Assembly (NCBI GenBank): GCA_035650975.1
Contig: DASRGQ010000058.1
Span: 3,019-67,018 of the forward strand
DNA from: Gaiellaceae bacterium
Lineage (GTDB): Bacteria; Actinomycetota; Thermoleophilia; Gaiellales; Gaiellaceae
DNA length: 64,000 nucleotides
Reading direction: 5' to 3'
Shown here: piece by piece, positions 9,063 through 20,216 of the stretch
Numbering within the stretch: position 1 is the stretch's first letter
Layout: the number at the start of each line of letters is the position of its first letter
Position numbers and translations under genes: made by a program
Notes under the pieces: generated by a model
Databases searched by the model: none
Told to the model about the DNA's origin: nothing
The model's input: the letters and a program-made list of their open reading frames with translations, nothing else

Positions 9063-9521
9063 TCAACGACTCGGTTCGGAGATCACTCCGCCGTTGTCGT
9101 CGTGCCACTCCCCGTTCATCTCCAGGTAGTTCACCGAATACTTCCCGCCGTAGAAGCAGAGGCTTTGGGCGTTGTAGGTGCGGTTGACTCCGTGATCGGA
9201 GCGAAACAGGTTCTCCTGGTACTCCCAACAACTCCCGTGCGTCTTCGACGGCGGTCCCACGAGCGTGCGAACCTGGTGCGTCGTCATGCCGAACGCGAGT
9301 TGTCCGGAGTGTGCCAAGAAGCGCCAGTCGCCCTTGTGGCCGATCTGCCCGCCGACAGGAGACGCTGACCCGGAGTGACTTGCGGGGCGCGTGAGCAATG
9401 CAACAGCGAGTACGAGAATCGTGATCGCAACGAGGCCGATGCCGCCCGCCGTAAGGCGTCGCCGGTTGCGCGGTCCCAGTTGGACGGCAATATCGGCGAC
9501 CGCGGCGTGCGCGACAGTCAT
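9063..9521 (-). CDS. single-pass membrane protein, paralog of 10573-11058
   Basis: N-terminus DIAVQLGPRNRRRLTAGGIGLVAITILVLAV, then FGMTTHQVRTLVGPPSKT...CFYGG. Shares these blocks with the plus-strand ORF at 10573. Confidence 0.6.
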   Translation of the reverse strand: MTVAHAAVADIAVQLGPRNRRRLTAGGIGLVAITILVLAVALLTRPASHSGSASPVGGQIGHKGDWRFLAHSGQLAFGMTTHQVRTLVGPPSKTHGSCWEYQENLFRSDHGVNRTYNAQSLCFYGGKYSVNYLEMNGEWHDDNGGVISEPSR

Positions 9522-10572: not shown

Positions 10573-11058
10573 ATGGCAGCGTTTGTCGCGATCACGGATG
10601 TCGCCGTCGAGATGGGGCCGCGCAATCGGCGGCGGCTTACCGTCGGGGTGATCGGCCTTGTCGCAGTCGCGGTGCTCGCCGTCGGGTTGGTGCGACTGAC
10701 ACGGTCGGCGAGCAATCCCGGTGCAGGGTCAACCGCTCACGCTGGGCGCTCCGCTGCGAACACAAGCAACCTGACGTTCGGGATGTCGATAAAGCAAGTG
10801 GAGCGCCTGGCAGGGCGGCCGGTCAAAACAGAGACGACCGCCCAGGGTCGCTGTCTCTTCTACCGACCGAAGGGATCGATGGTCGGATCGCTAGCTCTAG
10901 CCGAGGTCGGTTCGCTCGCGTACGGGAAGGAGATCGGCTTCGAGGCGTGCTTCTACGGAAGCGGGCTCTCCACGATGTTCGTGCACCACCCCCGCCCACT
11001 TGGTAAGCCGGGCTTCGAGTGGAGCGCCTTCTACGGGAATCCCTACTACTCGCGGTAA
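10573..11058 (+). CDS. single-pass membrane protein, paralog of 9063-9521
   Basis: DVAVEMGPRNRRRLTVGVIGLVAVAVLAVGLV, then FGMSIKQVERLAGRPVKT...CFYGSG. Confidence 0.6.
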   Translation: MAAFVAITDVAVEMGPRNRRRLTVGVIGLVAVAVLAVGLVRLTRSASNPGAGSTAHAGRSAANTSNLTFGMSIKQVERLAGRPVKTETTAQGRCLFYRPKGSMVGSLALAEVGSLAYGKEIGFEACFYGSGLSTMFVHHPRPLGKPGFEWSAFYGNPYYSR

Positions 11059-11191: not shown

Positions 11192-11404
11192 CTATCCAGC
11201 GCGCACAAGCTGTACCGCCCGCTTCGGGCACGCGTTCACCGCCCGGCGAGCGTGGTCCTTGAGTGCCAGCGGAATCGGGGTCGGGTCGACCAGGGGGAAC
11301 CCCCAGTCGTCGAGGGCGATGCGCTCGGGGAACAGCTCGGCGCAGAGACCGTGGCCGTCGCATGCGATTGGATCGACCAAAACGTTCAGTCGACGGCCTT
11401 TCAT
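11192..11404 (-). CDS. small ferredoxin (single Fe-S cluster type)
   Basis: MKGRRLNVLVDPIACDGHGLCAELFPE...AVNACPKRAV, i.e. a CxxGxGxC...CP ferredoxin pattern. The start overlaps the NuoF-like stop (ATGA). Confidence 0.75.
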   Translation of the reverse strand: MKGRRLNVLVDPIACDGHGLCAELFPERIALDDWGFPLVDPTPIPLALKDHARRAVNACPKRAVQLVRAG

Positions 11405-12597
11405 CGCGTCGCGCCCACCTGAAGAATCCCCTGGAGGCGCTTGCCGCATCCGCGGTGGTTCGCGTGACGCGCGAACTCCTCGGCGAACACGGCGAGCGCG
11501 CTGTCCACGAAGCGGACCACTCCGTCCGGGTGCCGGCAGGCGCCGCGCCCGGAGACAAGTCGTCCGAGCCGTTTGAGCTCGGGACGGCTGTCGCCACGCT
11601 GTTCAACGTGCATCGCATCCGAGATCGCTGCAAGTCCGTGGAGGCACGGGCCGCATTGCCCGGCGCTCTGATGCGCGAGGTACTGGACCACCCGCGCGCA
11701 TTCGGCGGCCGCGCACGTCGAGGATGGGAGCGCGACGATCACGCCGGCGCCGAGGATGTCGGGCATCAGCTGCGTCTGGGTTGCGGCGGCCGCCGGGATC
11801 CACCGTCCGAAGTAGCCGCCGACGAGGTAGGCGGCGACCTCAGCTGTCGTACCGCCGCTCTGCGTGATGACCTCTGCGAGCGTCGCACCGACAGGGATCT
11901 CATGGACTCCTGGCTGGGCGACGCTGCCCGAGAGCGTCACAAGCGCGGTTCCGCGTCCGAACCAGTCCGAGCCGAAGCGGGCAATCAGCGCGATGTGGCC
12001 GAGCGTCTCGACATTCTGGACGAGAGTGGGTGCACCGCCGAGGCCCTGTTCGGCCGGAAACGGAGGCTTGAGCGTCGGGTTTGCTCGGCGTCCTGAGAGA
12101 GCGCTCAGAACGGCTGTCTCCTCCCCGGCAACAAAGCCGCCTTCGACTGGCTCGACATCAAAGGTGACCGAGTCATAGCGCTTCGAGGTGCGCTCGCCGA
12201 TCGCCGCGGTCAGCTCTGGCCCGTATGTCGAGGTTGCGATGATGACCTGGGTCGCGCCGACCGCCTCCGCGGCGAGCGCAGCGCCGTCGAGGACGAGGTG
12301 CGGTGCGACGCGCAGAAGCGAGCGGTCCTTCTTGCTCGCCGGCTCTCCCTCGACGGCGTTCACGACGACGACCGCGCCGCGGCGGCGGGCGACCGCTGCC
12401 AGCTTGGTGGCCGTTGGGAAGCCGGCGCCGCCGCGTCCACGCAGCCCAGCGCGCTCGATGAGCGCAATCAGGTCGCACCCCGCTGGAAGCTCGCCGTACA
12501 GGGCAACGTGTCGGTCGAACGTGGGTCGGTGGCCTACAGCCGCAAGTAGGCGCGCGCCGCCTGCAGGTTGCCGACTCGACGCGTCGGCGACTTTCAT
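11401..12597 (-). CDS. NuoF-like NADH-binding FMN/Fe-S protein (Complex I 51-kDa family)
   Basis: GLRGRGGAGFPTATK (NADH/FMN motif), VVNAVEGEP, and SAGQCGPCLHG...GACRHPDG (Fe-S binding region). Confidence 0.85.
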   Translation of the reverse strand: MKVADASSRQPAGGARLLAAVGHRPTFDRHVALYGELPAGCDLIALIERAGLRGRGGAGFPTATKLAAVARRRGAVVVVNAVEGEPASKKDRSLLRVAPHLVLDGAALAAEAVGATQVIIATSTYGPELTAAIGERTSKRYDSVTFDVEPVEGGFVAGEETAVLSALSGRRANPTLKPPFPAEQGLGGAPTLVQNVETLGHIALIARFGSDWFGRGTALVTLSGSVAQPGVHEIPVGATLAEVITQSGGTTAEVAAYLVGGYFGRWIPAAAATQTQLMPDILGAGVIVALPSSTCAAAECARVVQYLAHQSAGQCGPCLHGLAAISDAMHVEQRGDSRPELKRLGRLVSGRGACRHPDGVVRFVDSALAVFAEEFARHANHRGCGKRLQGILQVGATR

Positions 12598-13676
12598 CCG
12601 CCGTCACCGCCGCCGGTCCGTGCATCCACCGTGCCGGTCGCTGTCCCGGAAGCGCTGTCGAGGGAGAGGATCATCGTCAGGAGGAGTCGGTCACCCGCCG
12701 AGTCGGCGACGGTCGCCGCGACAAGGTTGTTGTCGAGACCCGTGACCGATCCGTAGTAGACCGTCCTCGTCGTCGCAGGGACGAAGGAGACACCGCTTGC
12801 GGCCATGCTCACACCACCTGCGCTGGGCGTCCCGCGCAGGTCGATCCGCAGCGCACCGCCAGGGCCGCCCCCCGTGAGGCGGAGCTTGATCACCACCCTA
12901 GTCGTGCCGTTGCTTACCTCGCCCTGGACGATCGTGCCCACGAGCCGCGCCGAGAACGGACCGGGCGGCGACGCGGCGCTCGTGAGGGTCTTCGCCGGCG
13001 CCTGGGTGATCCGGTGCGAGGCCATCAGGTGTGTTGGCGTGCCGGCACGCGCCGCCCACCCCGTTTGCGCCGGGCCGCTCAGGTACCAGACAACGACGAG
13101 GATTGGCGCTGCGACAGCGGCAGCCGCTCCGCCGATGCGAACGTTGCGTATGCCGCCGCCGACTGCGACGCGGGCGAGAGTTGCGACGACCACGGAGACG
13201 AGACAGGTCACTCCCAACGCGACGAGCCACGTTGACTTGGGGTCACTGCCTGTTCCGAAGGAGTGCAGGAGTGCCACCGGCCACGATGCGTATGCGAGCC
13301 AATGCACTCCACGCCAGATTCGCGCGCCGATGCGATGGCGCAGGTAGCTCGTCACGACGAGGGCGAGGAGCAGGTCGAGGGCGACTGCACCAAGCCCGAG
13401 CCAGAAGGGCCGGTAAGGGGCCGCGAACGGGATGATCGCATCCGTCAGCCCGATCGGCGCGTAGCCGTCGGCGACCGTTGTCGCGACGTGCAGCGCGACA
13501 AAGACAATCGCCAGCAGCGTCGTGTTCCGATGGATCGACCCAATCGCGAACCGCGGCCACCGCGGGCCTTCGACGCGCAGGGCGGACAGGATGCCGAGTA
13601 CGACTGAGACCGTGAGAAGTACGAGTGCGACGGCGCCGCTGCCGCGCGTGATGTACCAGAGCTCGGTGGAGCTCAA
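12594..13676 (-). CDS. ferric-reductase-like (FRD/MsrQ-like) 6-TM di-haem protein with unknown C-terminal domain
   Basis: Six predicted TM helices. His pairs SIHRNTTLLAIVFVALH and VHWLAYASWPVALLH have NOX/FRE-like spacing. The TTG start overlaps the ApbE stop (TTGA). The roughly 130-aa C-terminal G/T/V-rich domain is unassigned. Confidence 0.8.
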   Translation of the reverse strand: MSSTELWYITRGSGAVALVLLTVSVVLGILSALRVEGPRWPRFAIGSIHRNTTLLAIVFVALHVATTVADGYAPIGLTDAIIPFAAPYRPFWLGLGAVALDLLLALVVTSYLRHRIGARIWRGVHWLAYASWPVALLHSFGTGSDPKSTWLVALGVTCLVSVVVATLARVAVGGGIRNVRIGGAAAAVAAPILVVVWYLSGPAQTGWAARAGTPTHLMASHRITQAPAKTLTSAASPPGPFSARLVGTIVQGEVSNGTTRVVIKLRLTGGGPGGALRIDLRGTPSAGGVSMAASGVSFVPATTRTVYYGSVTGLDNNLVAATVADSAGDRLLLTMILSLDSASGTATGTVDARTGGGDGG

Positions 13677-14589
13677 GCGGCCTCCGCGGCGGCCGGCCAG
13701 GTGCCGAGCAGGACGACCGATCCGTCTCGTCTGACAATACGGGCCGGGATGCACCGCGCATCGAGCCAGGCGCCGGCCGCCGGACCGGCGATGACGGCAA
13801 GCGTGGACGCCACATTTGCATCCACGCACGTCCCAGCAGCTGCGGTCACCGTCCTCCAGTCCGACCGCGACGGGGCGCCTGTGCGCGGATCGAAGAGGTG
13901 GTGCGCCTTACCGGTGGTCGTGAGCCAGCGGCGAATAACGATGCTCGAGGTGGCGAGGCCGCCGGCGGCGATCGCGACGACGGGTCCGGGGGCGTCGAGA
14001 GGCGCGGCGTGGTCCTCAGCGATGCGGACCGGCCACCCGCCCGGCGGCGGCGCGCCTGCAACCGAGATGTCCCCGCCGAGTGAGACGAGCACGCCCGTCC
14101 CCAGCGTGTCGGCGATCGAGGCTGCCGCACGGTCGGCGGCGAACGCCTTCGCCGTCGCGCCGAGGTCGAGCTGAACGCCCGGCGGTACGACGACCTCGTC
14201 GTCCTCGACCTGGACGCGACGCCACGCGTCGAGTTCCGGCGGACGAGCCTCGAACGCCACGGGGGCCTGCTGCCGAACGAGCCGGTAGGTGCGGTCGTAG
14301 CCCGCAGCGGCGATCGGTTCGCCGAGAGTCGGGCTGACGAGCCCGCCGGTCGCGGCAGCAGCGGCGAGGGCGACCCGCAGCGCGTCAGCGAAGAGGCGGC
14401 TGACACGGATCGGATCTCCGGCGTGCGCGTTTGCTCGGGCGAGCTCCGAGTCTGGGCGGAAGCGGCTCGCCGCCCGGTCGATCGCGTCGAGCTCGTCGGC
14501 GAGGAGCCTGAGCGCGATCGAGACATCGGCGCTGCCAGACACGACGAGGGTCGCCGTCGTGCCGAGCGCGGGGAACGAGGCCGACCGGA

Positions 14590-14593
<4 letters not shown>
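13673..14593 (-). CDS. apbE: FAD:protein FMN transferase (ApbE family)
   Basis: FPALGTTATLVV...IDRAASRFRPDSELARAN...LDLGATAKAFAADRAA...GGDISVAG...LATSSI, an ApbE-like pattern. No signal peptide or lipobox is visible. Confidence 0.85.
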
Positions 14594-14919
<326 letters not shown>

Positions 14920-14950
14920 GAGACGGCCATGAGCGCAACCTCAGTCGCGA

Positions 14951-16291
14951 CTAAGAACTGCGGGGGAGCGCGATCCAAGCGTCGAGGCCACCTCCGGGTC
15001 GGTTGGCCGCTGCGGCGGAGCCGTCGTGTGCGCGCGCGACGAGAGCGACGATGGCGAGGCCGAGGCCCGAGCCGCCGTTGCTTCGCGCCTCGTCGGCACG
15101 GCTGAACCGGTCGAAGGCTCGCTCGGCGAAATCGGCCGGGAAGCCCGGCCCCTCGTCAAGCACGTGTAGCTCGACGTGTCCATTTGCCTCGAGGGCGCTG
15201 AGTTCGACGGCGCCGGCGCCGTGTACAAGCGCGTTGTCGACGAGATTCGCGAGCGCCTGTTCGACCCGGATGACGTCCGCGTCGAGCGAGACTCCACTGC
15301 CGCCGTTTACGAGCAGCTCGCGGTTGGCGCTTGCTGCGCGACCGGCAAACCGACGCTGGATGCGCAGTAGGAACGTGTGCGCGTCGGTTGTCTCCCGGCG
15401 AACGGGCAGCCGGCCTTGGTCGGCCCGTGCGATCAGGAGCAAGTCCTCCGCGAGATGCGATAGCCGTTCGGTCTCCTCCGCGGCCGAGCGCACTGCCGCT
15501 TCCAGCTCGTCGTGAGTTCGCGGTCGGCTGAGCGCGAGTTCGAGCTCCGCTCGCAGCAGCGCGAGCGGCGTTCGAAGCTCGTGGCTCGCGTCACTGAGGA
15601 AACGCCGTTCGTGCTCGAACGCTGCCTCGAGGCGCGCAAGCATGTCATTCAACGTCAGTGCGAGCGCGCGCACCTCGTCGCGGGCTCTTGGAACGGGCAG
15701 TCGCCGACCGGGCACGTCGGGTGTGACGGCTGCGGCGCGCCGACGCATCGCCTCGACGGGGCGCAGCGCCGCGGCCGCGAGGCCGTACCCGGCGAGCACC
15801 GCCAAGAGGAGAGCCGCCGGCGCGGCAAGCAAGAACTCGCGCGAGAGTCTCGTGAGCGTCTCCGTTCTCGCGGCAAGCGAGCGCGCGACGATGATCGTCG
15901 CGGGGCTGCCGCGATAGGTGCCCGGCGATTCGGCGACCTGCCACGTTCCATCCAGGCCCTTCAACGGGGTCGTGAAGAGCGTTGTGTGCTTCAAGCGCGG
16001 CCGAGCCGGCAGGACGGCCGCCGATGCCGGCGTGGCCATGAGCAGGCTTCCGTCGGGTCGGGTCACGGCCGTGAGGAACGCTCCCTCGCTCGCGTCGCGG
16101 TCGCGCGCTACGTGGCCAGCAGCGGCGTCGTACTTTGCGTCGATGATCTGGCCGCGCAGACTGGTGTCGACGGATCCGAGCAGGGAGCTACCTACACGTA
16201 GGTAGATGAAGATGCCGGTTGCTGCGAGCACGAGGGCCATCGCCGCAGCAAACGGAAGCGTCAGTCGCAGTCTGATCGGGATCCGGCTCAC
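14951..16291 (-). CDS. sensor histidine kinase
   Basis: Two TM segments flank an extracytoplasmic region of about 150 aa. HAMP-like segment, H-box FLSDASHELRTPLALL, and an ATPase domain (VDNALVHG...GGSGLGLAIV). Confidence 0.9.
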   Translation of the reverse strand: MSRIPIRLRLTLPFAAAMALVLAATGIFIYLRVGSSLLGSVDTSLRGQIIDAKYDAAAGHVARDRDASEGAFLTAVTRPDGSLLMATPASAAVLPARPRLKHTTLFTTPLKGLDGTWQVAESPGTYRGSPATIIVARSLAARTETLTRLSREFLLAAPAALLLAVLAGYGLAAAALRPVEAMRRRAAAVTPDVPGRRLPVPRARDEVRALALTLNDMLARLEAAFEHERRFLSDASHELRTPLALLRAELELALSRPRTHDELEAAVRSAAEETERLSHLAEDLLLIARADQGRLPVRRETTDAHTFLLRIQRRFAGRAASANRELLVNGGSGVSLDADVIRVEQALANLVDNALVHGAGAVELSALEANGHVELHVLDEGPGFPADFAERAFDRFSRADEARSNGGSGLGLAIVALVARAHDGSAAAANRPGGGLDAWIALPRSS

Positions 16292-16968
16292 TCGCCGCCG
16301 TCCTCGCGCAGGCGGTAGCCAACCCCGCGAACCGTCTCGATCGAATGGCGGCCAAAGGGCCGGTCGACTTTCTGCCGGAGATAGCGCATGTAGACGTCGA
16401 CGACATTCGAGCGACTCTCGAACGCCATGTCCCAGGCACCGTCGAGGAGCTGCGAGCGTGTGAGCGTCTCACCGGCCCGCCGCAACAGCAGCTCGAGGAG
16501 TGCGAACTCACGTGCTGAAAGCTCGAGCTCGCTGTCACCGCGCCACGCGCGATGTGCAGCGGGATCGAGCCGCAGGTCCCCGGCCGCGAGCGTTGTCGGA
16601 CGTTCGATCGGTCCACGTCGCGCGATCGCACGCAACCGCGCCAGCAGCTCGGCGAACGCGAACGGCTTGGTCAGATAGTCGTCTGCGCCTGCATCGAGAC
16701 CGACTACTCGGTCGTTGATCGCGTCGCGCGCGGTGAGAAGCAGCACAGGCGTCCAGACGTGCCGTCGTCGAAGTCTCTGGACGATCTCGATCCCGTTGAG
16801 ACCCGGCAACATGATGTCGAGGACGATCGCGTCATACGGGGCGGCCTCCGCCATCCACAGCGCATCCTCACCGCGATGCGCCGTATCGGCCGCGTGGCCA
16901 TCCTCACGCAGCGCCCGCGCGACGAGGGCAGCCATCTTCGGCTCGTCGTCCACGACCAGGACTCTCAT
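16288..16968 (-). CDS. OmpR/PhoB-family response regulator
   Basis: MRVLVVDDEP...DAIVLDIMLPGLNG...LTARD plus a winged helix (REFALLELLLRR...VDVYMRYLRQKV). 4-nt overlap with the kinase. Confidence 0.9.
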   Translation of the reverse strand: MRVLVVDDEPKMAALVARALREDGHAADTAHRGEDALWMAEAAPYDAIVLDIMLPGLNGIEIVQRLRRRHVWTPVLLLTARDAINDRVVGLDAGADDYLTKPFAFAELLARLRAIARRGPIERPTTLAAGDLRLDPAAHRAWRGDSELELSAREFALLELLLRRAGETLTRSQLLDGAWDMAFESRSNVVDVYMRYLRQKVDRPFGRHSIETVRGVGYRLREDGGE

Positions 16969-17000
16969 GAAGTCATTGTGCGCTCTGGTTCCACCCGGAC

Positions 17001-17046: not shown

Positions 17047-17706
17047 CTAGTGGTCGTGATGATTGTGGTGACGCGACGAAAGATGCAGCCAGTCATGCTG
17101 AACCGGCAGCGTCGCCAGCCCTACGGTCAAACCGAGCACCAACGCCACGAGCAGGACGAGCGCTCGCCGTGACGCCCCGCCAACGTCCCTCCGTGTCCTT
17201 GTGCGTAGGTCTCCCTCGACCGCGCGAAGCGCACGGGTGAAGTAGACGAGAACATGAAGTCCGAGCGTCACCGTCCAGGCGGACGCCGCTGGCCCGTGGA
17301 TCCTCCGCGCGACCCGCAACGCCTCGCCGTGGACGAGACCGAGCGCGACGCCGCTTCCGAAGAGCAGCACGGTGAAGAGCACGAGCAATGGCGCGAGCAG
17401 CCTCATTAGGATCTGCGGCGGCCCCTTGACGCGATAGGCGTCGTTGCGCAGGTAGTAGCGCGCAAACCGCCAGCCTGTCGTCAGCAGTTTCAGGACGACC
17501 GGCGGCAACAGCACCAAGCCGATGATCACGTGCAGCCGCAGGTATGTCTGCAGGCCGAGTACGAGCGTCGCCAGCTCTGCGAGCGCAAGCACGATCAGAA
17601 CGAGCCCGACGGCGGCGGTGAGCCGCATGTTTCCGTCCGGGTTGAGACGTCGCGCAAACGGAGGCCGCCTCGGCTCCGTTGCTTCGATGACCTTCGACTC
17701 GGCCAT
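17047..17706 (-). CDS. multi-TM membrane protein with conserved His residues and His-rich tail; paralog of 18404-19012
   Basis: Start at MAESKV preceded by GGAGGGGG. Four to five TM helices. Ends ...HLSSRHHNHHDH. Aligns along its whole length with the ORF at 18404. Confidence 0.65.
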   Translation of the reverse strand: MAESKVIEATEPRRPPFARRLNPDGNMRLTAAVGLVLIVLALAELATLVLGLQTYLRLHVIIGLVLLPPVVLKLLTTGWRFARYYLRNDAYRVKGPPQILMRLLAPLLVLFTVLLFGSGVALGLVHGEALRVARRIHGPAASAWTVTLGLHVLVYFTRALRAVEGDLRTRTRRDVGGASRRALVLLVALVLGLTVGLATLPVQHDWLHLSSRHHNHHDH

Positions 17707-17934
17707 ACCCCCTCCGCTTGTACCTGCGACGGCGCTGCGTTGCACACTCGTTCTCATCCGGCTCTCACCAAGACCCGTTGTACGGTTATCGGCCGTGAGC
17801 GAGATGCGAGGCCGTCTCGCTACCAACTGCGCGCACCTCGCCCCACGTTGCAACGCAAGCGAGCGACAGGCCCAGAAGCGGACAATCGGCGCGCCAGATA
17901 TGCGCCGTCCACGACCGATCAAGGAGGAGGCGAC

Positions 17935-18403: not shown

Positions 18404-19012
18404 CTAGCGAAAACGGCCGAAACGGAAACCGGTCTGCCAGTGGTGGGCGAGCGGAAACGCGAACAGCGCGAGGAGCACGCCGACAAGGAGGGCTGATGCG
18501 AGGATGATTTGGCGCAGTCGCCGTCCGCCGAGGCGGTCGCGTCGCCACCAGTCCGAGGCGGCCAGCGGGAGCTTCGACAGGTGCGCGAGCACGTGCAGGC
18601 CGAAGGCGACTCCCCAGACGACGAAGCTCACCTTGTGCAGGCCAAGCCAGAGACCGCCGTGGCCGGCGAACGCCGCAGCGATCCCGGTCGCGAGCATTAG
18701 GACCGTCGAGACGACGAGGACTGGCGCGACGAGTACGCGGAGCACGACGTGTGGTGGTCCGCGCCGCACGTACGCCTCTGCTCGCCGGTAGTACGAGACC
18801 ATCCGCCAGCCGGTGCTGCCGAGCTTCAACGCGACCGGCGGGATGACAAGGAGGCCGATGAAGATGTGCGGGGTCAGATACCGGCCGACGCCGCCGAGCA
18901 AGGTCAAGCCTTCGGCGGCGAGCAAGACGATCAGGACGACGGCGGTCGCGGCCGTGAGCCGCTCGTTCCCATCGCTCCCGCCGACGAACAGCCGGTGCAG
19001 CCGGGCTCTCAC
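18404..19012 (-). CDS. multi-TM membrane protein, paralog of 17047-17706
   Basis: GNERLTAATAVVLIVLLAAEGLTLL...HIFIGLLVIPPVALKLGSTGWR...GPPHVVLRVLVAPVLV...GLHVLAHL. The start is uncertain (GTG at 19012; in-frame alternatives up to 19282). Confidence 0.6.
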   Translation of the reverse strand: MRARLHRLFVGGSDGNERLTAATAVVLIVLLAAEGLTLLGGVGRYLTPHIFIGLLVIPPVALKLGSTGWRMVSYYRRAEAYVRRGPPHVVLRVLVAPVLVVSTVLMLATGIAAAFAGHGGLWLGLHKVSFVVWGVAFGLHVLAHLSKLPLAASDWWRRDRLGGRRLRQIILASALLVGVLLALFAFPLAHHWQTGFRFGRFR

Positions 19013-19280
19013 GGCGCCATGGTGCCCGTCGAAACCTGAGGAACGGCTGAGACTGCCAACCCCTGCAGGGTCGGCGCACAACCGCCTACGACCAGCTGCG
19101 GTACCCCTTGTTAGCTTGATCCGGTCGTGGGTCTTGGAAACCGTTGACGGCCTCTGCGGTTCGCCAGGCTTGCATTCAGCCGCTCCGCGTTGCTTCCGCC
19201 GGCGCGGTTCTGGACGACTCGCGGGACTGAACGGCGCGGGGGACCGTTTCGCGGACGGCCGCACCCGGTACCTCGGGTGC

Positions 19281-20216
19281 ATGGAAATCGGCTACTGGCT
19301 CTCATCCGAAGAGCACGGACCAGGTGCGCTCGTCGAGCACGCCGTGCTTGCGGAGCAGGCGGGCTTCGAGCACCTGCTCATCTCCGACCACATCCATCCC
19401 TGGGTCGACGCGCAGGGACACAGCCCGTTTGTCTGGGGCGTGATCGGCGCGATCGCCCAGGCGACGGAGCGGATCCGGCTCGGCACCGCGGTCACCTGCC
19501 CGCTCGTGCGCATGCACCCTGCGATCGTCGCGCACGCCTCAGCAACAGCGCAGTCGCTGATGGACGGCCGCTTCTTCCTCGCGCTCGGCACCGGCGAGCT
19601 CCTGAACGAGCACGTGCTCGGCGACCGCTGGCCGCGCCCGGACGAGCGGCTCGAGATGCTCGACGAGGCCGCCGAGCTGATCCGCAAGCTCTTCGGCGGC
19701 GAGTACGAGACCTACCGCGGCAAGCACTACACCGTCGAGCAGCTCAAGCTGTACGACGCACCCAAGGAGCCGCTGGCGATCGTTATCGCCGCGAAGGCCG
19801 AGAACGCCGCGAAGCTCGCGGCGAAGCGGGCCGACGGGACGATGAACACGACGCCCGACGCCGACATCGTCAAGTGCTACCGCGACGCCGGCGGCACCGG
19901 GCCGATCTACGGCAAGGTCACCGGCTGCTTTGCGAGCGATCCCGCAAAGGCGCTCGAGATCGCGCTCGAGCGGCAGCCGAACGTCGCAATCGGCGGCGAC
20001 GCCTCAACGGAGCTCGCGCTTCCGCGCGACTTCGAGGCGCTCGCAGAGCTCGTGCGGCCGGACGACCTCCGCGACGAGCTCGCACTCGGCGACGACCCGG
20101 CCGCGTGGCGCGAGAAGATCGACGCGTTCGACAAGGCCGGTTTCACGCACGTCGCCCTCCACAACGTCGCCGAAGAGCAGACCGGCTTCATCGAGTTCGC
20201 GCGCGACCTCATTTAG
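19281..20216 (+). CDS. LLM-class F420-dependent oxidoreductase
   Basis: MEIGYWLSSEEHGPGALVEHAVLAEQAGFEHLLISDHIHPW...RFFLALGTGE, a luciferase-like monooxygenase / F420-dependent G6PDH-family pattern. Confidence 0.85.
   Translation: MEIGYWLSSEEHGPGALVEHAVLAEQAGFEHLLISDHIHPWVDAQGHSPFVWGVIGAIAQATERIRLGTAVTCPLVRMHPAIVAHASATAQSLMDGRFFLALGTGELLNEHVLGDRWPRPDERLEMLDEAAELIRKLFGGEYETYRGKHYTVEQLKLYDAPKEPLAIVIAAKAENAAKLAAKRADGTMNTTPDADIVKCYRDAGGTGPIYGKVTGCFASDPAKALEIALERQPNVAIGGDASTELALPRDFEALAELVRPDDLRDELALGDDPAAWREKIDAFDKAGFTHVALHNVAEEQTGFIEFARDLI

Follow-up and report, generated by a model that had tools for sequence, protein, structure and literature searches.

A two-component-linked ferric-reductase-domain, NuoF-like and ApbE gene cluster from a Gaiellaceae bacterium as a candidate transmembrane electron conduit

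Here we analyze a 64,000-nucleotide stretch of DNA from a Gaiellaceae bacterium (hereafter the window; all coordinates are positions within it, in forward strand numbering) and a minus-strand gene cluster in it that encodes a two-component system (TCS), a small protein of 109 amino acids, an ApbE-family flavin transferase, a ferric-reductase-domain (FRD) membrane protein, a NuoF-like protein and a ferredoxin. We consider it probable that these genes, together with an upstream membrane-protein gene that we call memA, form a TCS-controlled operon of about eight genes for a one-way electron conduit over the cytoplasmic membrane, with a flavin arm as its likely outer carrier. More specifically, hydride from NAD(P)H would be taken up by the flavin mononucleotide (FMN) of the NuoF-like protein, and single electrons would pass from the iron-sulfur (Fe-S) cluster of this protein to the ferredoxin, then to an inner haem b and an outer haem b of the FRD protein. 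Outside the membrane, the electrons would most likely be taken over by an FMN that ApbE joins through a phosphoester bond to the small protein's C-terminal Ser/Thr. Carried on a flexible tether, this flavin would possibly dock on a C-terminal β-domain of the FRD protein, and would hand electrons on to an external acceptor, for example a metal ion, oxygen or an envelope protein. The response regulator probably binds a TGAGA-N5-TGAGA repeat and would turn the unit on upon an envelope signal. Metal reduction, oxygen reduction and envelope-protein repair are all candidate functions. The most interesting and testable feature of the cluster is the small protein with its invariant SGG(S/T) C-terminus.

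Layout and conservation of the cluster

The genes of the cluster and the protein segments discussed below are as follows (FAD, flavin adenine dinucleotide; AF2, AlphaFold2 model).

16288..16968, minus strand: OmpR/PhoB-family response regulator (Pfam Response_reg and Trans_reg_C)
14951..16291, minus strand: sensor histidine kinase with two transmembrane (TM) helices (Pfam HAMP, HisKA and HATPase_c)
14590..14919, minus strand: small, putative anchor-and-arm protein, 109 amino acids (homologues upstream of ApbE/FRD)
14593..14616, minus strand: codons of the C-terminal P-V-V-V-S-G-G-S of the small protein, candidate ApbE flavinylation site on the last Ser
13673..14593, minus strand: ApbE-family FAD:protein FMN transferase without leader peptide (PF02424 ApbE, 3.4e-45)
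12594..13676, minus strand: FRD protein, 360 amino acids from a TTG start (Pfam Ferric_reduct PF01794)
13074..13676, minus strand: FRD residues 1-201, predicted six-helix di-haem ferric-reductase/MsrQ-like domain (PF01794, AF2)
12615..12956, minus strand: FRD residues 241-354, predicted extracytoplasmic eight-strand antiparallel β-domain (AF2, no known family)
11401..12597, minus strand: NuoF-like FMN/Fe-S NAD(P)H dehydrogenase module (Complex1_51K, SLBB and NADH_4Fe-4S)
11192..11404, minus strand: single-cluster ferredoxin, 70 amino acids (Pfam Fer4_15)

A first-pass annotation of the window had described seven co-directional minus-strand genes in this region. Open reading frames (ORFs) for all seven lie where it placed them, and its domain calls (OmpR-type response regulator, histidine kinase, ApbE, FRD, NuoF-like and ferredoxin) were upheld by Pfam profile search. 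Junctions were read directly: the regulator and kinase genes overlap by 4 nucleotides, the small gene and apbE by ATGA, apbE and the FRD gene by TTGA, and the NuoF-like and ferredoxin genes by ATGA, all in agreement with that annotation, while the ATGA overlap between the FRD and NuoF-like genes was absent from its list. The kinase gene and the small gene are separated by a gap of 31 nucleotides. The five core genes (small, ApbE, FRD, NuoF-like and ferredoxin) are translationally coupled via 4-nucleotide overlaps. No terminator-like site was found in a search for intrinsic terminators inside the probable transcription unit (17768 to 11192), and the search for sigma-70 promoters inside it gave a single sigma-70-like match, within the kinase gene.

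Thermoleophilia (Gaiellales, Solirubrobacterales) are abundant, largely uncultured soil bacteria. A scan of species-representative genomes gave at least 591 matches to FRD relatives in total and returned 80 loci, all of them from metagenome-assembled genomes (MAGs), which belong to Gaiellales, Solirubrobacterales, other Thermoleophilia, Acidimicrobiia and one Chloroflexota. Synteny was counted in the 64 loci with sufficient flanking sequence. The FRD gene is followed by NuoF-like and ferredoxin genes in 60 of these, ApbE precedes FRD in 50, and an orthologous TCS is present in 37-38. The cluster is a conserved unit in related genomes, and a lack of synteny, which the first-pass annotation had named as a ground for refutation, was not observed.

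The haem membrane protein and its cytoplasmic donor

The FRD protein is 100% identical to an annotated protein of a Gaiellaceae MAG. It scores 33.9 bits against PF01794 (curated cut-off 28), and this domain is present in all but one of 120 FRD homologues among the matches listed. Two His pairs, H49/H63 (14 residues apart) and H125/H138 (13 apart), are borne by two TM helices; all four residues show no variation among 20 homologues, and their conservation is still at least 90% in a set of 76 sequences that reaches down to about 42% identity. The earlier observation that the pairs have the 14/13 spacing of NOX/FRE domains is thus borne out. The His-bearing helices, TM2 and TM4 here, correspond to TM3 and TM5 of NOX; compared with NOX, the protein lacks one N-terminal helix and has an extra helix at the end. 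The AF2 model has six helices, and its best PDB matches in Foldseek are STEAP2 and STEAP1 (probability 1.0). By profile and His criteria, the FRD protein belongs to the ferric-reductase-domain superfamily, and binding of two b-type haems is predicted.

The distribution of charged residues bears on the orientation of this protein. Across the FRD family, the loops that follow helices 1, 3 and 5 have mean Lys+Arg (K+R) counts of 3.6, 4.1 and 1.9, compared with 1.5, 1.7 and 1.0 for the N-terminus and for the loops that follow helices 2 and 4. These loop charges indicate an N-out, C-out topology, the same orientation that is demanded by the NOX haem helices, and the final ~155 FRD residues are accordingly predicted to lie outside the cell. 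The C-terminal domain had previously been taken for a cytoplasmic docking site for the NuoF-like protein and the ferredoxin. This part of the earlier interpretation fails, as the loop charges place the domain outside and its predicted fold is all-β, so that docking with the NuoF-like protein is unlikely.

Modelled alone by AF2, the β-domain forms an eight-strand antiparallel β-meander (predicted local distance difference test score 89.5, predicted template modelling score 0.80). Pfam search at E up to 10 gave no match, a profile search of PDB sequences gave zero matches, and Foldseek returned only a weak likeness to small β-barrels (E at least 0.012, best TM-score 0.43). Only 223 relatives were found among 1.84 billion cluster representatives, almost always in C-terminal position, and a juxtamembrane motif, W..GP...GWA.R.GTP, is strongly conserved directly before the domain. 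No FAD_binding or NAD_binding Pfam match was found in the FRD protein and the β-domain fold has no match to FNR, confirming that the fused FNR-type FAD/NADPH domain is missing. The possibility that the domain is a divergent FMN_bind or DUF2271 domain was rejected for want of any Pfam match (E up to 10), PDB-profile match or NqrC/RnfG-type Foldseek match. Two segments of the protein that resemble flavinylation sites were likewise rejected: "DSASGTATG" near the C-terminus is unconserved even in close homologues, and "ASGVS" in the β-domain (S294-S297) is kept in relatives above 54% identity and lost more widely, with SRVS, SDVA or GSVA in place of SGVS at a site that sits within a β-strand.

On the cytoplasmic side, the NuoF-like protein aligns with Thermus thermophilus Nqo1 (E=2.8e-51) and keeps the GRGGAGFPT, ExEP, GEET, PPFP and NVET motifs. 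The FMN/NADH-site motifs are conserved over 76 family members; two Nqo1 residues are exchanged, Asp94 for Val and Tyr180 for Phe. All Pfam domain matches are above their cut-offs, the score against the NuoF equivalog model TIGR01959 (207 bits) is below the cut-off of 558.65, and RnfC models match the protein at about 1e-20. Five Cys are conserved in the family (C295, C315, C318, C354 and C384), of which C295 and C384 are additional to the canonical N3 set. The GRGGAGFPT motif noted at first pass and the other FMN/NADH motifs are in place; the N3 Cys set is incomplete, at three of four. In the ferredoxin, three Cys are conserved and arranged as CxxHxxC...CP, which is typical of [3Fe-4S] actinobacterial ferredoxins. 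The NuoF motifs, the invariant haem His and the synteny in 60 of 64 loci fit an NAD(P)H-fed transmembrane path assembled from separate parts, the core of what had been proposed at first pass.

The small protein, ApbE and alternative readings

The small protein consists of an Arg-rich N-terminus, a single hydrophobic helix and an Ala/Pro-rich tail that contains an (AP)7 run and ends in PVVVSGGS. Its family shares the Arg-rich N-terminus, the hydrophobic helix, an (A)AGSTHxKK motif and often APAPPLV. The tail has a median length of 65 amino acids (range 56-124; 21% Ala, 20% Pro, 12% Ser) and is otherwise freely variable, up to a C-terminus of the form P-V-V/A-V-S-G-G-S/T. In the C-terminal logo of 68 sequences, S(-3) is found in 67, G(-2) in 65, G(-1) in 66 and S/T(0) in all 68. 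SGGS is by far the commonest C-terminal tetrapeptide among the 7439 ORFs of at least 60 amino acids in the fetched loci (66 cases). A total of 69 of these ORFs end in SGG[ST]; 65 of them are located directly upstream of ApbE/FRD and three of the other four are linked to the cluster. A strict search placed homologues of the small protein upstream of ApbE/FRD in at least 58 of 81 loci; when variant endings were allowed, nearly all loci had one. The gene lies directly upstream of ApbE, or of FRD where ApbE is missing. No Pfam family matches the small protein, and its 22 database relatives are unnamed or called just 'hypothetical protein'. Its N-terminal hydrophobic segment could, by sequence, serve as a signal-anchor. 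A canonical twin-arginine translocation signal is unconvincing, since an Arg-Arg pair is found in the N-flank of only 48 of 68 small proteins and the copy in the window has RVRG.

Other explanations for the conserved end were considered and rejected. The small gene and apbE are not one frameshifted gene, as the stop after SGG(S/T) is kept in all loci, including those where FRD follows. The small protein is not a TCS-dependent accessory, being found in loci without a TCS, and its C-terminal SGGS is not a general sorting signal, being restricted to this cluster type. In one locus (L050:6659-7060), the small gene reads …PVAVSG and then leaves the pattern, probably owing to a frameshift or assembly error in that MAG.

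The ApbE protein carries the motifs HHLFDPRTG and DANVAST (HHxxDP and DAxxxST), which align with the structures of TM1553 and Treponema pallidum Ftp, and conservation of its catalytic His and metal-binding motifs extends over 63 family members. In the 30-odd related loci with an ORF that opens at the proximal start codon, the conserved core begins no more than about 12 residues in. No FMN_bind, DUF2271 or DUF3570 domain was found in the cluster proteins by Pfam search at E up to 10. ApbE recognizes D-x-x-[ST]-G-A-[ST], the final residue being the one modified; a 7-residue tag is sufficient and works best at a protein terminus, and the Asp is dispensable, its exchange for Ala having a minor effect (PMC12052999). 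In addition, unstructured C-terminal extensions of FMN_red proteins are naturally flavinylated (PMC11334425). As judged from sequence, the only conserved flavinylation-like motif in the cluster is the SGG(S/T) end of the small protein: V-V-S-G-G-[ST] agrees with the recognition motif at three of four core positions and is the sole conserved candidate for the ApbE substrate. The small protein, treated at first pass as a bystander beside an ApbE without substrate, thus becomes the sole conserved candidate target.

The gene order in a related locus, L084, provides a comparison. It encodes, in this order, a protein with a Pro/Ala/Ser linker and an FMN_bind domain (30.9 bits, DIVSGATGSS), a leaderless ApbE and an NqrB/RnfD-like protein with the same β-domain; the FMN_bind gene overlaps apbE by the same ATGA, and the contig is 2.8 kb long (L084:2-2807), with the N-terminus of the FMN_bind protein missing. 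As the small gene occupies the same slot as the FMN_bind gene of L084, the small protein would take the position of the ApbE substrate. In locus L080, FRD and ApbE belong to two different operons that converge, and the SGGS gene is found beside ApbE-NuoF-ferredoxin. This arrangement, the gene order of L084 and the translational coupling of the small gene to apbE all speak for a link between the small protein and ApbE. We tentatively propose that the small protein is a natural minimal flavin tag, a reading we hold to be possible rather than probable: an anchored disordered arm with FMN on its C-terminal Ser/Thr would serve as a mobile carrier from the outer haem and β-domain to an external acceptor, and would have been reduced from a linker-tethered FMN_bind carrier like that of L084.

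A number of observations weigh against a conduit with an outer flavin arm. Compared with the known motif, that of the small protein has Gly for Ala and lacks the Asp. ApbE has no signal peptide in any locus with a readable start, which conflicts with candidate targets, the small-protein tail and the β-domain, that are both predicted to be outside; modification before export, unconventional export of ApbE or a cytoplasmic arm are possible ways to reconcile the two. The charges flanking the helix of the small protein (mean K+R 5.0 in the N-flank versus 3.2 in the C-flank) only weakly suggest that its tail lies outside the cell. In about 12 of the 64 loci, the small gene and FRD occur with no ApbE in the vicinity, and the β-domain is found in two further clusters (L085 and L086) that contain neither ApbE nor a flavinylation-motif gene. 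The β-domain itself has no conserved Cys, His or Met. On the donor side, the first of the canonical N3 Cys is Ala in the NuoF-like protein, for which C295 and C384 could stand in; no NuoE or NuoG gene was detected in the cluster by Pfam scan and in annotated neighbourhoods, so that the NuoE partner is missing; and docking of the ferredoxin on the FRD protein, whose cytoplasmic loops are short, is a proposal. No acceptor, metal transporter, MsrP or VIT1 gene was found among the cluster and flanking ORFs scanned. Finally, the whole mechanism is drawn from sequence and structure prediction.

The consistent lack of an ApbE leader, with cytosolic ApbEs known from elsewhere (PMC12052999), also suits a version of the same conduit in which the arm is on the cytoplasmic face. 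Here the small protein would be N-out/C-in, its tail would be flavinylated by a cytosolic ApbE, the tethered FMN would act between ferredoxin/NuoF and the inner haem, at the position held by FAD in NOX and STEAP, and only the β-domain would be outside. The nearly alike flank charges of the small-protein helix are in line with this arrangement. In the FRD superfamily the flavin is normally found on the cytoplasmic side, and swinging arms rich in Ala and Pro, as in pyruvate dehydrogenase E2, are cytoplasmic as well. We nevertheless regard a cytoplasmic arm as unlikely. The N-flank is still the more positive one and, with the Arg-Arg pair in 48 of 68 proteins, fits N-in; an extra flavin is unneeded where the NuoF-like protein has FMN and the ferredoxin gives single electrons directly; and the leaderless ApbE of L084 has a linker-tethered FMN_bind protein as its partner, and proteins of this class are extracytosolic in characterized systems.

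Two further readings dispense with a flavin on the arm. The His spacing of 14/13, identical to that of NOX/FRE, and the presence of an NAD(P)H module would be compatible with a split NOX-like oxidase whose outer haem reduces O2 directly to superoxide, as bacterial and eukaryotic NOX do, the small protein and ApbE being accessory or unrelated; memA might then recycle superoxide electrons to quinone like CybB. The relation of the response regulator to HprR (205 bits), the oxidant-responsive regulator of E. coli msrPQ, and the PF01292 domain in memA homologues point in the same direction. This reading leaves the presence of ApbE in 50 of 64 loci, the SGG(S/T) C-terminus and the conservation of the β-domain unexplained, however, the PF01292 match of memA itself is not significant (E=0.11), and no superoxide dismutase, catalase or target gene is linked to the cluster; we think it quite improbable. 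Alternatively, the small protein may not be a redox carrier: it could act on the adjacent histidine kinase as a membrane connector or modulator, or could partner the FRD protein structurally, comparable to p22phox for NOX2, with VVSGGS docking on the β-domain and ApbE modifying some other protein. Its gene directly follows the kinase gene in the window, it pairs with FRD in the absence of ApbE or NuoF in loci L040, L072 and L075, and its V-V-V run with small residues could add a strand to the β-sheet. Yet at least 18 loci without a TCS contain the small gene, it goes with ApbE and not with FRD in L080, and no other cluster protein has a conserved [ST]-G-x-[ST], the SGVS of FRD being lost in distant homologues. 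Such a role appears very unlikely to us, and we retain the conduit with an outer flavin arm as the preferred reading.

Regulation, known systems and related loci

The following features concern the regulation and the upstream end of the unit.

17752..17768, minus strand: probable response-regulator operator, direct repeat GTGAGA-gccgg-ATGAGA (pattern search)
17717..17721, minus strand: -10-like box ACAAG, counterpart of the ACAAT box of related loci (inferred from conserved spacing only)
17047..17706, minus strand: memA, 219-amino-acid membrane protein, cytochrome-b561-like, probable first gene of the unit
14918..14934, plus strand: second, inverted operator-like repeat ATGAGAcggccATGAGC, with 1 mismatch, over the start codon of the small gene

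Among NCBIfam models, the response regulator is closest to the CopR/SilR/CztR subfamily (TIGR01387, 240.8 bits versus a cut-off of 279.2) and also matches RppA and HprR (205 bits), with no model reaching its cut-off; it is 66-83% identical in related loci. The histidine kinase scores 243 bits against the heavy-metal sensor kinase model TIGR01386 (cut-off 292.55). CopRS/CusRS/CztRS are therefore the closest TCS models, but by cut-off neither protein is a member. The sensor domain of the kinase, read by eye in translation, is not rich in Met, His or Cys.

Of 43 related loci, 33 carry a repeat of the form [AG]TGAGA-N5-[AG]TGAGA upstream of the response regulator gene, where shuffled sequences give an expectation of 0.05; it is located at positions -57 to -60, or inverted at -39 to -42. 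Nearly all related loci have a conserved ACAAT box at about -11 of the regulator start, a position that suggests leaderless or near-leaderless transcripts. In the window, the repeat is absent from the 78 nucleotides upstream of the regulator gene, and GCGCACAATGACTTCATG stands at ~16971-16988, where related loci have the ACAAT box. Upstream of memA, the window reads GTGAGAgccggATGAGA, 30 nucleotides and then ACAAG (17768-17717), which places the repeat 47 nucleotides upstream of the -10-like box, with the same architecture and spacing as in the other loci. Given that the repeat is missing before the regulator gene and present before memA, the transcription unit is probably memA-regulator-kinase-small-ApbE-FRD-NuoF-ferredoxin, from 17768 to 11192. 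The cluster boundaries drawn at first pass were right for the seven genes and missed the upstream memA gene and the operator, so that the unit reaches to about 17768. Control by the adjacent TCS, also suggested at that stage, is supported by the regulator and kinase genes in 37-38 of 64 loci and by the operator in 33 of 43 regulator upstream regions. Operator-like repeats have four matches in the window versus 1.87 expected by chance; the site at 14918..14934, not significant alone, may act in internal regulation or have arisen by chance.

The memA product is 100% identical to an annotated 219-amino-acid hypothetical protein (P0143), with about five helices predicted by eye and a His-rich C-terminus. 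In its family, H59, H137 and H151 are invariant and three more His are nearly invariant. Its own PF01292 match has E=0.11, and PF01292 is present in 7 of 120 memA homologues among the matches listed. In 26 of 64 loci, a gene like memA or its paralogue memB is found no more than about 6.5 kb away from FRD, usually adjoining the regulator gene. In the window, memB (18404-19282, minus strand; 46% identical to memA over 136 amino acids) is co-directional and just upstream, and is preceded by just one GATGAGA half-site (19299-19305), which makes it an uncertain member of the unit.

The combination of genes, not recognized at first pass, is already in print as a bioinformatic inference. Méheust et al. 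2021 (eLife, PMC8238504) describe 1797 "MsrQ-like" flavinylation-associated clusters, mostly actinobacterial; in 31 of these, NAD(P)H is presumed to enter through the product of a NuoF-like PF10589 gene. Our cluster is a variant of the MsrQ-like systems, a rare subtype with a NuoF-like protein in place of the fused FNR-type domain. Shared with them is a PF01794 di-haem membrane protein beside apbE: in that study a cluster is recognized by PF01794 within five genes of ApbE/FMN_bind, and here ApbE is immediately upstream, as in 50 of 64 loci. MsrQ-like systems as described there use an FMN_bind, DUF2271 or DUF3570 substrate, whereas our cluster has none of these, nor an FNR domain. With an ApbE that lacks a signal peptide, it may not come under the operational definition used in that study. 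It differs further by the novel β-domain, the motif-only small protein, the linked ferredoxin, the TCS and the cytochrome-b561-like gene. An MsrQ fused to FMN_bind has been modelled by Huang et al. 2024 (mSystems, PMC11334425). No experimental characterization of MsrQ-like/NuoF-type systems was found in the literature. The first-pass interpretation was thus largely right, anticipated in the literature, and wrong on the FRD C-terminal domain; newly noted here are the β-domain, the SGG(S/T) end of the small protein, the operator and the extension to memA.

Other known systems share parts of the cluster. With NOX/FRE/STEAP it has in common two bis-His haem sites on two helices with 14/13 spacing, a STEAP-like fold and, likely, the logic of passing electrons from a cytoplasmic nicotinamide cofactor through flavin and two haems to an outside acceptor. 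In contrast to these, the FRD protein has no fused FNR-type or F420-type domain, the donor being a separate Complex-I-51-kDa-like protein with a ferredoxin, and a register shift of one helix places its C-terminus outside; it lacks the fused FNR-type dehydrogenase domain of NOX proper. E. coli MsrPQ/HprSR likewise combines an FRD-family haem protein with a CusRS-like TCS, and the regulator reaches 205 bits to HprR. Our regulator and kinase are, however, below every equivalog cut-off and the operator is a TGAGA direct repeat. No MsrP or Oxidored_molyb was detected among the cluster and flanking ORFs scanned or in Pfam-annotated neighbourhoods. MsrQ receives its electrons from quinol or Fre, unlike the NuoF-like donor proposed here. 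NQR and RNF share a Complex1_51K/SLBB-type NADH module and an ApbE-dependent extracytoplasmic FMN relay (NqrC/RnfG there, proposed here), and the β-domain is also fused to an NqrB/RnfD-like protein beside ApbE and FMN_bind in L084. The cluster has no NqrB/D/E or RnfA/D/E, transfer would use haems and not Fe-S/flavin, and nothing in the cluster points to ion pumping. The small protein, lastly, shares with flavin tags and FMN_red extensions a short unstructured terminal [ST]-G-x-[ST], which is enough for ApbE (PMC12052999, PMC11334425). Its motif is SGGS and not SGAT, without Asp, and would be the sole functional element of an anchored disordered protein.

If true, the proposed conduit would be the first case of a NOX-type system whose fused flavin domain has given way to a Complex-I-like FMN/Fe-S module with ferredoxin, and a compact regulated module exporting reducing power from Gram-positive-type cells. 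A domain-less tethered peptide as a natural ApbE substrate would, if confirmed, widen the search space for "orphan" ApbE targets, which concern about 4% of genomes according to Méheust et al. (PMC8238504).

Related loci place the β-domain and ApbE in further contexts. Judged by sequence, the β-domain recurs with three classes of membrane protein, namely FRD, NqrB/RnfD-like and b561-like (putative haem binding). In L085 (25-3617) and L086 (111-2982), a single-helix-anchored β-domain protein is encoded divergently from a response regulator (52% and 56% identical to that of the window, respectively) and a histidine kinase. The intergenic region of L085 contains CTGAGA-N5-CTGAGA-N5-CTGAGG, and the TGAG-type repeat of L086 is less regular. 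In L085 the next gene is memA-like and overlaps by 4 nucleotides; no such gene was detected in L086. NAGPA follows in both, and UbiA in L085 only. Locus L040 has a second module (L040:1175-3501) with a leaderless ApbE, a 197-amino-acid MsrQ-like protein with 14/13 His pairs and an anchored protein with two CxxCH, probably a di-haem cytochrome c. This suggests that a leaderless ApbE beside MsrQ-like proteins is a recurring theme in Thermoleophilia.

In the window itself, two paralogous small proteins (9063-9521, minus strand; 10573-11058, plus strand) flank the downstream end of the cluster. They share the N-terminal anchor …GPRNRRRLT.G.IGLVA…, one has a weak BamE-like match (E=0.0035), and both are probably unrelated to the conduit. 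Between 19254 and 23303 lie cluster-unrelated genes for a luciferase-like monooxygenase (plus strand) and a GMC oxidoreductase with a gluconate 2-dehydrogenase subunit-3-like protein (minus strand).

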